Shown here: piece after piece, positions 37,349-42,048 of the stretch
How positions within the stretch are numbered: the stretch's first letter is position 1
Layout of the letters: each line of letters opens with the position of its first letter
From: Proteobacteria bacterium UBA6915
GTDB taxonomy: Bacteria > Pseudomonadota > Gammaproteobacteria > UBA6915
Assembly (NCBI GenBank): GCA_002450975.1
Contig: DKAX01000097.1
Span: 1-51,524, forward strand
Direction: 5' to 3'
DNA length: 51,524 bases
Translations under genes and position numbers: made by a program
Notes under the pieces: model-generated
Database searches by the model: none
What the model was told of the DNA's origin: nothing
What the model saw: only the letters and a program-made list of their open reading frames with translations

Positions 37349-38650
37349 ATGGAGGACAGAACCGTGTCTACTTGGGAATGCAAAGCGCCAATGAGCAAAC
37401 AACAGACCGCGTGCGGCTGTCTGCCGGCCGGGTTTTCCCGCCTACGATACTTTTTTGGCAAACACCTCAGTGTGGCCGATTTTATCGATGAACAACGATA
37501 CCACACCACGAAACATCGGTTGCACAACCAGCGACTGCATGGTGCCGGTGTATTGTGTGGCCTGGGGCTATCTCTTCTCGATCCCGACGGAACTATCATC
37601 CGGGTCAGGAAGGGAGCCGCGCTGGATCGCTGCGGGCATGAAGTCATCGTGGGTTTCGATCAGTGTATCGATGTCGATGCGTGGTTCAAGAAGCAAAGAC
37701 AACAGGAACTGGCTGACGATCCGGGTAGTACCTGGCCTGATCCACTACTGGATGAAAACGGCAGGTTGTCGGTGTGTGTGGTGCTCCAATACCACGAGTG
37801 TCCTACCCAACCGGAACCTGCGCCCCGTGATTCCTGCGCCTGTGCCGAAGGTGGCTGTGAGTTCGGTCGGGTCAGTGAGGAATTTCTTCTCGATTTATAT
37901 GTACGCGGGGAGGCGGAAGCGTTGACCGAGCATGAATCGTTTCCGAGTCAGGAGCAGATTGTAGAGGCCTTGTCACATGGCACCGGTGGCGTGGATCTGC
38001 TGCGTCGTCTGGCCGAACCGGTTACCGAGTCGTGTCCACCGGGCGTTGACCATCCGGGTCTGTTGTTGGGCTGCTTTAACGCGGTATTGAGTGAACCTGA
38101 TCATGACAGCGTGTTGACTGTCGAAGATCTGGGCGTCTATTACGTGCCGCCGCTGTTGTTGTCTACTGAGGTGATTCAGCTCTTGCTGGCTAATCTCTAT
38201 GTCGATCTTGACGTGGATATCGGTGCACCGTCGATAGTCGAAGTGCGCTGGGAGAAAGATGACACTGCCCCGGGCGACACCTACCGGATGATCCTGATGC
38301 TCAGCGGCGAGATCAACAAACAGACAGTGGAGCAGAATGACATCTTGAAATTCAGGAAGCTGATCGATGATGTTGGCTGGGATCCGCCCCCGCCCAACGC
38401 CATGTCCGCGACCTATGGGGTCGACCAGGACGTCCCGGGGCCGGCCATCTATGTTTCCATCAAGCAAGCGGCAAATTTTCTCGAAGATGGTGCGCTCTAT
38501 CAACTGTATGTTGATTCGACTATGGACCCGATCGTGGATTCCGAACTCAGGCAATTGCGGCCGCATGATTTTACCTGGCGGTTTCGCCTAGTCGATGATG
38601 GAACCGGTGAGTTCCTGATGGAACTGCCACCATTTGCTGGCAATCATTAG
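37349..38650 (+). CDS. Hypothetical CIS protein, paralog A of a Cys-containing N-terminal domain family
   Basis: First ATG after the upstream stop. The N-terminal ~190 aa align with the protein at 39628-42048 (RxRxFxG...GxGVxxGL...DxCGxxxIV...LQYxECPxxPxPxxxDxC...CE). Confidence 0.55.
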   Translation: MEDRTVSTWECKAPMSKQQTACGCLPAGFSRLRYFFGKHLSVADFIDEQRYHTTKHRLHNQRLHGAGVLCGLGLSLLDPDGTIIRVRKGAALDRCGHEVIVGFDQCIDVDAWFKKQRQQELADDPGSTWPDPLLDENGRLSVCVVLQYHECPTQPEPAPRDSCACAEGGCEFGRVSEEFLLDLYVRGEAEALTEHESFPSQEQIVEALSHGTGGVDLLRRLAEPVTESCPPGVDHPGLLLGCFNAVLSEPDHDSVLTVEDLGVYYVPPLLLSTEVIQLLLANLYVDLDVDIGAPSIVEVRWEKDDTAPGDTYRMILMLSGEINKQTVEQNDILKFRKLIDDVGWDPPPPNAMSATYGVDQDVPGPAIYVSIKQAANFLEDGALYQLYVDSTMDPIVDSELRQLRPHDFTWRFRLVDDGTGEFLMELPPFAGNH

Positions 38651-38668
38651 AGCAAGGGAGGATAACCA

Positions 38669-39628: not shown

Positions 39629-42048
39629 TGGAAGCCAAAGTCAAACAAGAACTTGTACCCTGCGTCCCTGGAGTCTTACCGGGCGGACTGAAGCGTACCC
39701 GGTTCTTCGATGGTATGTTCCTAACCCAAAAGGATCTCGAGCGGGAACAGAAATACTGGACCATCAAACGCCGCATGACCAATCGTGCTCTAGGCAAGGG
39801 TGTTGTATGGGGCTTGCGTCTGGATTGGGACATGCTCAACCGAAGATTTATCCTCTTTCCAGGCTACGGTGTGGACTGCTGCGGCAATGACCTGATTGTG
39901 GAGTGTGAACAGGCATTTGACGAACGCAAACTGATCGAGCGTGCCGACACGTGCACCAAAGCACTGATCTCGGGCAGGCATATGTCGTCGGATCGTTGTC
40001 CCAAGGTGACCGAAGATCGGCCACGCAAAGTCGGGGTGATACTGCAATATGTGGAATGTCCGGAAGAACCCAAACCGGTCTATAAGGATGCCTGTACAAC
40101 CAATGTCACTCAGTGCGAGTATTCCAGTATCCGAGAGTCAACTCAATTGCTGCTGGTTCCACCTCCCTCGCCAACGGCACCGGGGCCGGTGAATAATTTC
40201 TGCAGCGATGTCGAAGCCTTGCGTGAGGCATGTGAAGCGGCAGGGGTCTCGTGCAACCTGTTCCAGAAACTGGCGGAAACCGACGCAGTGCGTTTACGTG
40301 CCCGCATCCGGGTACAGGAGCTGGACGCAGCCAGGCTTAACGTCGCATACCTGTCACCGAGTCTTGATCTGGAAGGTAACCCGGCGGTGTCACAGACCCT
40401 CGATCTGTCGGCAGCAAACGCTACCCTGGGCCTCTGTCTGGAACCTGATCCCGGTTATGTGTTTTTGGCTGGTCAATTGATCGATGGTGCTGGCAATACC
40501 AGCGCACTCTCTCCCTTTGGAATGGAACGGGTAGAGGTCACTTTAGGGGCGAGTCCTGTGGTCTACACCGTTACAGACTTGGTTGTCGCACCGCTGTTTA
40601 ACAAAGGGGCGCATCACAAGCTTGCCATTACCCTGACCTTGACCGGGGACCCGGTCAACCAGCAGGTCGTGATCAATGCCGAAACCACGGAAGTGGAAGT
40701 GGTGGAAGAGGCGGGTAGTTGTTCAGACCTGGTTTCCCCCGCACTGATATTCAACACCTCTGCACTTTGCGCGACCAAGATGCTGGCGCTGAACGCTATG
40801 TGTGGTTGGTTCAAGAGTCTGATCAGCCCGGTGGACGAAGGAACAGTCAATGTCCGGCAGGAGGTGGCGTGGCTGATCTGCTTGTTGAGCTGGCGTCTGT
40901 TGTTCAAGGCTAACCTGGATGCTGATGCTGAGGCAAAACTGAACGCGCTGGTGCAAAAGTTGTTCAGTGAACTGTGTGCCGGACTGGTCTACCCGGGGCC
41001 ACGTTGCTACGAAGAGCACCATGGTGTCTATTTGGGAAGTATCGAATTTTCCAAAAACGGCGGTATCAAACGCTTCAGCCCCTGGGAGTATAGACGTCAT
41101 GTGCTGACCGGTCCCCTGTTGAACCACTGGTTGGGGCAGTTCGGGTTTGCACCCATCGACATGGTGGCAGGACGTATGGCTCAATGGATCTGCTGTCTGG
41201 CGAAAAATCCGTTACCCATGGCTGCGCAGCAGGGTGCTGCACTGGCGGGATCCTATGTTCCCATTACCAAGGATGGCGCGGGTCTCTACTATGGCACCGA
41301 CTATGACATCTATCTGCAGAACCATGGTTTGTCGCAGGCCGGTGACCTTCATGAAGTGAGTGCGACAGAGTTCGCTTCGTTGCTGACGCAGAATTTGCTG
41401 TACGTGGCCCCGGGTGAGGATCGCAGCGGTCTGGCGGGAAGGCGTGTCTACTCGATCACCGGACGACAGGACATTTTTTTGATGCTGCCAAGCTCGCTGG
41501 GTCTGGTCATACGGCCGCCGAATCAGGGGCGCAACCCGCGTGGTGAACTGGGGGCGATCATCGAAGGTAGGACGCGGGAGCTTAGACCCTTGGCACGCAG
41601 TGTGGTTGGCGATTTCCTGCTGGAACTTGCCAACAATACCGCCTTGAGCAGTTTGCGTGTGCCTGAGAACAGCTCGACTTTCCAACCCTTGGTCAAGGCG
41701 TTAAATTCAGCCGGTGTGGCGACGGTGGGTGACTATCTCTCTCTGGGAACAGAGGCGGCCGCCCGGCTTGCCATGCCCTATGCCGCAGCTAACGGTATAA
41801 ACAGTAATGAATCGGTTTACGCTGCAGCTGAAGATGTCTTTGATGCTGGCGAGGAACTGCTAAGCAAAACCGCCAAACCGTTGGTCTCCGCCGCCAAGGG
41901 AAGTTCGTCACCGTTTACCCGGGACAAATTAAGCAGTGATGCCCTGGTTACGGACATCAGGAAGAGCGCGGCTACCGCATTGAAGCGAAATTTGTTTACC
42001 AAGGCTGATGTGACTGCAATCGCAGAAAAGGTTATCGCTATCGGTTGA
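39628..42048 (+). CDS. Hypothetical CIS protein, paralog B (806 aa) of the Cys-containing N-terminal domain family
   Basis: The TAATG start overlaps the upstream stop and has a GGAGGAGG RBS. It shares its N-terminal domain with 37349-38650 and has a long unique C-terminal region. Confidence 0.6.
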   Translation: MEAKVKQELVPCVPGVLPGGLKRTRFFDGMFLTQKDLEREQKYWTIKRRMTNRALGKGVVWGLRLDWDMLNRRFILFPGYGVDCCGNDLIVECEQAFDERKLIERADTCTKALISGRHMSSDRCPKVTEDRPRKVGVILQYVECPEEPKPVYKDACTTNVTQCEYSSIRESTQLLLVPPPSPTAPGPVNNFCSDVEALREACEAAGVSCNLFQKLAETDAVRLRARIRVQELDAARLNVAYLSPSLDLEGNPAVSQTLDLSAANATLGLCLEPDPGYVFLAGQLIDGAGNTSALSPFGMERVEVTLGASPVVYTVTDLVVAPLFNKGAHHKLAITLTLTGDPVNQQVVINAETTEVEVVEEAGSCSDLVSPALIFNTSALCATKMLALNAMCGWFKSLISPVDEGTVNVRQEVAWLICLLSWRLLFKANLDADAEAKLNALVQKLFSELCAGLVYPGPRCYEEHHGVYLGSIEFSKNGGIKRFSPWEYRRHVLTGPLLNHWLGQFGFAPIDMVAGRMAQWICCLAKNPLPMAAQQGAALAGSYVPITKDGAGLYYGTDYDIYLQNHGLSQAGDLHEVSATEFASLLTQNLLYVAPGEDRSGLAGRRVYSITGRQDIFLMLPSSLGLVIRPPNQGRNPRGELGAIIEGRTRELRPLARSVVGDFLLELANNTALSSLRVPENSSTFQPLVKALNSAGVATVGDYLSLGTEAAARLAMPYAAANGINSNESVYAAAEDVFDAGEELLSKTAKPLVSAAKGSSSPFTRDKLSSDALVTDIRKSAATALKRNLFTKADVTAIAEKVIAIG

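Follow-up and report, generated by a model that had tools for sequence, protein, structure and literature searches.

The 51,524-nucleotide contig DKAX01000097.1 of Proteobacteria bacterium UBA6915, hereafter the window, derives from a metagenome assembly and carries an operon for an extracellular contractile injection system (eCIS). Our subject is a block of genes behind the baseplate genes of this operon, here called A, B, C, and D. We consider it likely that A and C encode paralogous peripheral baseplate proteins of the eCIS, docked through a common N-terminal "shoulder" domain onto the wedge protein encoded immediately upstream. This reading builds on the homology of the two N-termini, on a gene order and on protein families conserved across several phyla, and on a resemblance in fold to TssK from type VI secretion systems (T6SS). 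The original prediction had envisaged a baseplate-docking domain fused to variable distal domains. Docking is supported by matches to the family CIS13_fam, by matches to the baseplate proteins Alg19 and Cis19, and by Foldseek, while freely swapped tips were not borne out.

The N-terminal domain shared by A and C

We confirmed that A and C share an N-terminal domain. BLASTP reproduced the blocks that had been aligned by eye (E 4e-20, 31% identity over 205 residues; A 23–223, C 15–217), and an hhalign comparison of the two family alignments gave a probability of 99.3% and an E-value of 8.6e-21 (A 21–206, C 17–204). A hidden Markov model (HMM) of the domain, with 176 positions common to A and C, matched only these two proteins among the 329 six-frame open reading frames (ORFs) of the window. 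With the shared domain removed, the best profile–profile alignment of A and C was not significant (E 0.11, probability 0.5%). This best candidate for similarity beyond the shoulder, A 238–270 with C 467–493, was discarded, and the C-terminal regions are unrelated at the level of sequence, as had been claimed.

The cysteine positions of the domain are indeed conserved between the two proteins. Five cysteines align: C22, C95, C151, C163, and C171 of A with C12, C85, C144, C156, and C163 of C. Conservation of the first four pairs is 90% or higher in either family. In the fifth column, cysteine reaches 98% in the C family but stays below 80% in the alignment of the A family, and its frequency among close relatives is 0.81. 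The last four positions form a signature that is kept in close relatives of both architectures. This signature is absent from Alg19 and Cis19, and three of its four cysteines lie in a low-confidence loop of the model. In homologues of A from Bradyrhizobium, Hyphomicrobium, and Paracoccus (loci L005, L008, and L010–L012), the Cys-rich loop that follows a Y-x-E-C motif in the shoulder is enlarged from 20 to about 37–43 residues with 5–8 cysteines, e.g., CYCGGCSSCQSRSCDPC. The idea that these extra cysteines co-vary with the number of cysteines in B was rejected (Spearman rho -0.10, p 0.71).

An HMMER scan of 1.84 billion representatives detected the domain in 11,915 clusters, 6,496 of them at E ≤ 1e-10. 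It mostly forms the N-terminus of proteins of 400–1400 amino acids (aa), and in some it follows an extension of 160–270 residues. All members that we looked up are named "hypothetical protein". When the domain alignment was used to look for homologues, the yield was largely short fragments, with no named protein among them. One 3045-aa protein (P0315) gave 30 matches to domain-profile positions 92–148; these are probably a Cys/Pro-rich repeat hitting the low-complexity loop, not true homology.

The original prediction assigned none of A, B, and C to a known family. This assessment stands for Pfam, which has no match to any of the three proteins and no model for the shared domain. It needs correction for A and C, the N-termini of which are recognized below threshold by the NCBIfam model CIS13_fam (NF053767) at A 29–102 (E 9.7e-11, 41.5 bits) and C 21–93 (E 5.4e-6, 25.9 bits). 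The same model matches ten wider relatives, again at the N-terminus only. In all of these proteins, the first ~75–180 model positions correspond to the shared domain. The scores of 26–96 bits compare to a cutoff of 370 and the rest of the 392-position model is unmatched, so that A and C are not CIS13 equivalogs. Candidates for the source system of CIS13_fam were discarded: the contractile injection system (CIS) of Streptomyces has no such gene, and Cis13 of the thylakoid-anchored CIS (tCIS) is a small transmembrane protein.

Searching 177,635 Protein Data Bank (PDB) sequences with the domain profile returned two baseplate proteins as top matches, both in register at the N-terminus. One is the AlgoCIS tail fibre Alg19 (9wt0_a, residues 19–76, E 0.008) and the other, from the Anabaena tCIS, is the crown protein All3314/Cis19 (7b5h_AA, residues 18–77, E 0.026); the position of both in their particles is known from experiment. 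Foldseek, a method independent of the sequence profile, agrees with these marginal sequence matches. The AlphaFold2 model of A matched chain 9euj_G of the phage 812 baseplate (E 7e-5), TssK (5y0e_C, E 4.9e-4; 5m30_B), the Cis19 chains 7b5h_AA, AB, and AC (probability 0.91–0.94), and chain D of the T6SS baseplate entry 6giy. Apart from the domain-profile matches to Alg19 and Cis19, A to D searched singly or as profiles gave nothing usable in PDB, Pfam, or PHROGs. We conclude that the shared domain is a TssK-like "shoulder", the baseplate anchor of CIS fibres.

The overall layout of A also corresponds to that of TssK. In the AlphaFold2 model (predicted local distance difference test score, pLDDT, 80.9), the shoulder at residues ~20–190 is followed by short neck helices and an immunoglobulin (Ig)-like β-sandwich head at residues 291–433. 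The Foldseek matches of this head are immunoglobulin-type domains. The model of C (pLDDT 82.6) contains the same shoulder as A; a Foldseek search of this model against BFVD gave one unnamed match and nothing interpretable. The public gene call for A is somewhat shorter (428 aa), with a GTG start at 37364 preceded by GGAGGA.

Both proteins are conserved as full-length families, A with about 410–450 aa in multiple phyla and C with about 760–860 aa. Their best-conserved part is the shoulder (identity 0.55–0.68 vs 0.2–0.3 distally), and residues ~441–530 of C are nearly as conserved (mean pairwise identity 0.56 vs 0.18–0.29 in the adjoining regions). Within this central core of C, C450, C460, C522, and C523 are invariant, and H465 (98%) and H500 (92%) are almost so. 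The distal parts of A and C evolve faster yet remain alignable.

Probable docking onto the wedge protein and competing explanations

The genes for gp25, Baseplate_J, and a Tail_P2_I protein lie immediately upstream of A, which is the slot directly behind the baseplate genes that had been described. The Tail_P2_I protein (926 aa) is an Afp12/TssG-like wedge protein and the putative docking partner of A and C. In an alignment across 24 loci, its C-terminal ~150 residues display conserved Gly/hydrophobic loops. Related baseplates suggest how such loops may be used. The cryo-electron microscopy study of AlgoCIS firing shows the Alg19 trimer gripping the C-terminal loop of Alg12 with its three central helices, in a manner "reminiscent of TssG-TssK". 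An Alg19 deletion mutant in that study rarely binds cells and fires more easily. In the Anabaena tCIS (PDB 7B5H), Cis19 trimers form a crown on the baseplate, and in phage 812 a single scaffold protein offers two docking loops, which are occupied by two tripod trimers.

By analogy, A and C would each form a homotrimer through the ~180-residue TssK-like shoulder. The three central helices of each trimer (A ~42–62, C ~34–51), which align with the N-terminal helix region of Alg19 and Cis19, would clamp a C-terminal loop of the wedge protein. Since several conserved loops are present on the wedge protein, one trimer of A and one of C are probably bound per wedge. The distal parts would extend outward from the baseplate in the form of short fibres or feet, consisting of the neck and Ig-like head in A, and of a β-sandwich, the Cys/His-rich core, and a helical tail in C. 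They may contact the target, hold the baseplate in its pre-firing state, or do both. B and D travel with A and C and would be assembly or structural partners.

Several points weigh against this proposal. The sequence links to Alg19 and Cis19 are marginal and span only ~60 residues. The Foldseek E-values are modest, the match is local, and global TM-scores are low, since the chains are multidomain. The model of C resembles TssK only weakly (E 0.012, probability 0.25), and confidence in the A model is low over its first 60 residues. We infer trimerization, the docking site, the stoichiometry, and target binding alike. Finally, the distal parts are conserved across several phyla, which makes target binding less certain than docking. 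Rapidly evolving receptor-binding tips are not usually conserved as families over several phyla.

The order gp25, Baseplate_J, Tail_P2_I, A, (B), C, D occurs in 24 of 24 homologous loci with enough flanking DNA, and the Tail_P2_I gene stands directly upstream of A in all of them. The hosts are Alpha-, Beta-, and Gammaproteobacteria, Myxococcota, a metagenome-assembled genome of Chloroflexota from a vent, Actinomycetota, Verrucomicrobiota, and Acidobacteriota. A reverse search of metagenomes starting from the wedge protein found A, (B), and C downstream in all seven close relatives that include downstream sequence. The genes are thus a regular part of orthologous loci. A more distant Tail_P2_I lineage (metagenome loci L041 and L043–L051) has duplicated Baseplate_J genes and four shoulder-domain genes, of which two lie upstream of the wedge gene and match only the first ~80 residues of the domain, and two lie downstream (~280 and ~400 aa).

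These findings give weight to the alternative that A and C dock as proposed and yet serve as fixed, TssK-like structural feet or connectors instead of target-binding fibres. In such an arrangement, they could form a bridge from the baseplate to some conserved partner, whether B, D, or a structure of the host envelope, or act as a firing checkpoint. We judge this alternative as unlikely overall. A purely structural or checkpoint role is nevertheless a serious rival, because A and C are conserved families and not shuffled tips; both have the look of fixed parts of the baseplate no less than that of receptor-binding fibres. The full-length families keep a fixed order across Pseudomonadota, Myxococcota, Chloroflexota, Verrucomicrobiota, Acidobacteriota, and Actinomycetota, and B and D nearly always accompany them. 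The strongly conserved Cys/His core of C, the TssK-like shoulder, neck, and head of A, and the fact that Alg19 also stabilizes the pre-firing state all fit a structural role. On the other hand, the distal regions are still the fastest-evolving parts, and A ends in an Ig-like head, which is a typical binding module. The locus also bears the hallmarks of an eCIS, including a Pvc16 cap, an eCIS_core (DUF4157) protein, an AAA ATPase, and CIS_tube. None of A to D contains a transmembrane-like segment, which rules out membrane anchoring as in Cis13 of the tCIS.

Since eCIS effectors are often encoded at this end of the operon, A, B, and C could alternatively be cargo, effectors, or enzymes placed between the baseplate and ATPase genes, with catalytic or redox-active cysteines. 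Conserved cysteines and histidines in C 450–523 and in B would suit this role, as would weak Foldseek matches of C to transglutaminases (E 0.05–0.3, probability < 0.1). We regard the idea as very improbable. Searches of Pfam, NCBIfam, PHROGs, and PDB matched these proteins to no family of enzymes or toxins, and their only links by family, sequence, and fold are to baseplate proteins of CIS and T6SS. A to D are invariant in position and order, in contrast to the variable cargo genes further downstream. Assignments of C as a transglutaminase or as PI3K were discarded in view of negligible Foldseek probabilities.

Partner genes and the surrounding operon

The coordinates of A and C, their domains, and the neighboring features are collected in Table 1. 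Gene B encodes a protein with a CASC motif at residues 11–14 and nine cysteines in the last ~90 residues, as first noted from the sequence. The homologues retain the C-terminal Cys-rich domain, with about ten conserved cysteines including the invariant C236, C242, C289, C295, and C311, and a terminal C-x-[YF]-A-V-[EG]; the N-terminal CxxC is not kept. In most loci, B homologues contain CGCGG-type runs. The stop codon of B overlaps the start of C (TAATG) behind GGAGGAGG, and B is translationally coupled to C. No match to B was found in Pfam, NCBIfam, PHROGs, or PDB.

Table 1. Position of the A–D genes, their domains, and associated features in the window
Feature	Coordinates	Strand	Description or basis
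Gene A, 433 aa (443 aa from 37319)	37349..38650	+	ORF; shoulder-domain protein, TssK-like overall layout
Shared shoulder (anchor) domain of A, residues ~20–195	37406..37933	+	Long helix 42–62; C95, C151, C163, C171
C-terminal β-sandwich (Ig-like) head of A, residues ~291–433	38219..38647	+	Secondary structure, pLDDT >90, Foldseek
Gene C, 806 aa	39628..42048	+	ORF; shoulder, β-sandwich region, Cys/His-rich core, α-helical C-terminus
Shared shoulder (anchor) domain of C, residues ~12–188	39661..40191	+	C85, C144, C156, C163
Central conserved segment of C, residues ~441–530	40948..41217	+	C450, C460, H465, H500, C522, C523
Wedge protein, 926 aa, NHL repeats + Tail_P2_I	34566..37346	+	Pfam Tail_P2_I and NHL; NCBIfam CIS12_fam (subthreshold), TIGR02242
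Gene B, 319 aa	38669..39628	+	Conserved N-terminal region, variable low-complexity linker, conserved Cys-rich C-terminal domain
Cys-rich C-terminal domain of B, residues ~230–319	39356..39625	+	Alignment of 17 homologues from loci
Gene D, 579 aa	42067..43806	+	Conserved N- and C-terminal domains, long disordered Pro/Ala/Ser-rich linker
eCIS operon	~21.2 to 50 kb	+	Pfam and NCBIfam scans of window proteins

Some loci of Verrucomicrobiota, Acidobacteriota, and Polyangia have no B. There, C carries an N-terminal extension of 160–190 residues. C-type proteins with an extension before the shoulder, which spans 160–270 residues in this wider set, include L027 11258–14185, L031 11222–14038, P0314, P0320, P0321, P0326, and others. 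The extension in L027 ends with LPCDFAVG, which resembles the terminal motif of B. Fusion of B into the extension was rejected as unsupported, given that the B HMM finds nothing in such proteins.

Gene D is tied to the baseplate block just as closely as A and C are. The motifs LW..G..E and RRAGLD.NPGW.PWL are invariant among its homologues, and D has no match in any family library or in PDB. Both B and D are probably assembly factors or further structural parts.

The cysteines of this block permit one more reading, in which A to D together form a fixed hetero-oligomeric foot of one widespread eCIS lineage and the cysteine sets serve as a lock, dependent on redox state or metal, by which the baseplate is armed or stabilized. 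Metal binding or disulfide formation by the four-Cys signature of the two shoulders, the ~10-Cys domain in B, and the Cys/His core in C might then set in only once the particle is outside the reducing cytoplasm. We view this as a long shot. To our knowledge, a baseplate lock of this kind has not been described for contractile injection systems.

The operon itself begins with genes for a Pvc16_N cap, a 939-aa sheath protein, a gp19 tube protein, a second sheath protein, a second tube protein, and CIS_tube. These are followed by a 418-aa VgrG-related protein, a VgrG/gpV spike, a 278-aa protein, a PAAR-like protein, gp25, and Baseplate_J (TIGR02243). The wedge gene, A, B, C, and D come next, and the operon continues with an LGT-like membrane protein, the eCIS_core (DUF4157) protein, a 299-aa protein, and the AAA ATPase. 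TssL and TssM were absent among the window proteins scanned, which were the main ORFs of the eCIS locus and not every ORF.

A few further features of the window deserve mention. The two sheath genes lie at 22515–25334 and 25822–27195. The product of the first is unusually long, with sheath domains confined to the last ~270 residues. The product of the LGT-like gene (43840–45276) in the eCIS operon is a polytopic membrane protein of 478 aa that contains a prolipoprotein diacylglyceryl transferase (LGT) domain; it was not detected at the equivalent position of homologous loci and therefore stands outside the conserved set. The eCIS_core protein (646 aa, 45273–47213), which also has a weak C-terminal DUF6310 match, is probably cargo or an effector. 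Its slot varies between loci, with PT-HINT in Sorangium and Annexin repeats in Bradyrhizobium. Directly upstream of the eCIS operon is a gene for a LuxR-type response regulator (19897–20619), which could control it; further upstream lies a gene for the RNA repair pathway nucleotidyltransferase RlaP (17394–18188).

Relation to known fibre anchors and significance

Anchors of this kind have recently been classified. Nachmias, Wang, Feng, Jiang, and Levy (Nat Commun 2026, PMC12923769) define five N-terminal "eBAP" anchors of eCIS fibres. In their scheme, eBAP3 is a ~200-aa shoulder-like, TssK-like domain encoded downstream of the Tail_P2_I (TssG-like) gene. The authors describe multi-fibre loci as enriched in Pseudomonadota and Myxococcota and propose that up to four fibres attach through loops. 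A and C agree with the eBAP3 description in all features tested. They share an N-terminal anchor of ~200 aa and are otherwise different proteins; the fold of A, and more weakly that of C, is TssK-like; and both are encoded behind the Tail_P2_I wedge gene of a locus that has no classical Afp12. As with eBAP3, several anchor genes occur per locus, and one anchor carries different distal architectures. The eBAP3 gene list of these authors places matches in Paracoccus (cluster 1398) and Sphingomonas (cluster 1578) at genes N and N+2, which is the spacing of A, B, and C. Both genera contain homologues of A and C. In contrast to diverse tips, A and C are conserved orthologous families. The case for their membership in eBAP3 is circumstantial. 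Identity with eBAP5 (DUF6519) was excluded by the absence of a Pfam match.

Alg19 (PDB 9WT0) and Cis19, which represent the eBAP4 archetype, are baseplate-docked trimers with N-terminal ~60 residues (long helix and first hairpins) in register with the shared domain, and the fold of A matches all three Cis19 chains named above. In contrast, they are chains of about 1450 aa with PKD/Ig domains, come from loci with Afp11/Afp12 and no Tail_P2_I, and lack the cysteines conserved in A and C; the CG motif of the shared domain is replaced by T-x-[DE]-G. TssK shares with A the layout of shoulder, neck, and head (5y0e, 5m30, 6giy) and a TssG-like (Tail_P2_I) partner, and the two TssK trimers per TssG parallel the two paralogues described here. 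This likeness is one of fold only, as A and C have no sequence match to TssK families in Pfam, NCBIfam, or PDB. Furthermore, TssK is a single gene and not a divergent pair, and it connects to the TssLM membrane complex, whereas the present locus is of the eCIS type.

A and C are not Afp13-type fibres. Afp13 and Pvc13 (eBAP1) share the operon slot and the presumed role. However, PMC12923769 describes them as having a ~50-residue helical anchor and an adenovirus-like β-spiral shaft, whereas the models of A and C show a β-sandwich shoulder. Neither solved fibre sequences nor the fibre families of Pfam gave a match to A or C, which instead belong to the TssK-like shoulder proteins.

This kind of anchor has therefore already been published, in concept and in structural basis, in 2025–2026, and A and C are an uncharacterized instance of it; the finding opens no new field. 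Its only new aspects are the conserved four-gene block and the cysteine signature. In the sections, legends, and supplement of PMC12923769 that were read, there is no mention of the block of A to D, the signature of four cysteines, the Cys-rich B, or the conserved core of C.

What the analysis provides are names and a docking model for four genes that RefSeq calls "hypothetical protein". Bacteria from soil, marine, and vent habitats, belonging to at least six phyla, harbor the eCIS lineage with these genes. Knowledge of the anchor may be useful for retargeting or engineering the particles, for example by swapping the parts that follow residue ~190. The finding also strengthens the view that eCIS baseplates of the Tail_P2_I type are built like those of T6SS, with a TssG-like wedge and several TssK-like trimers.

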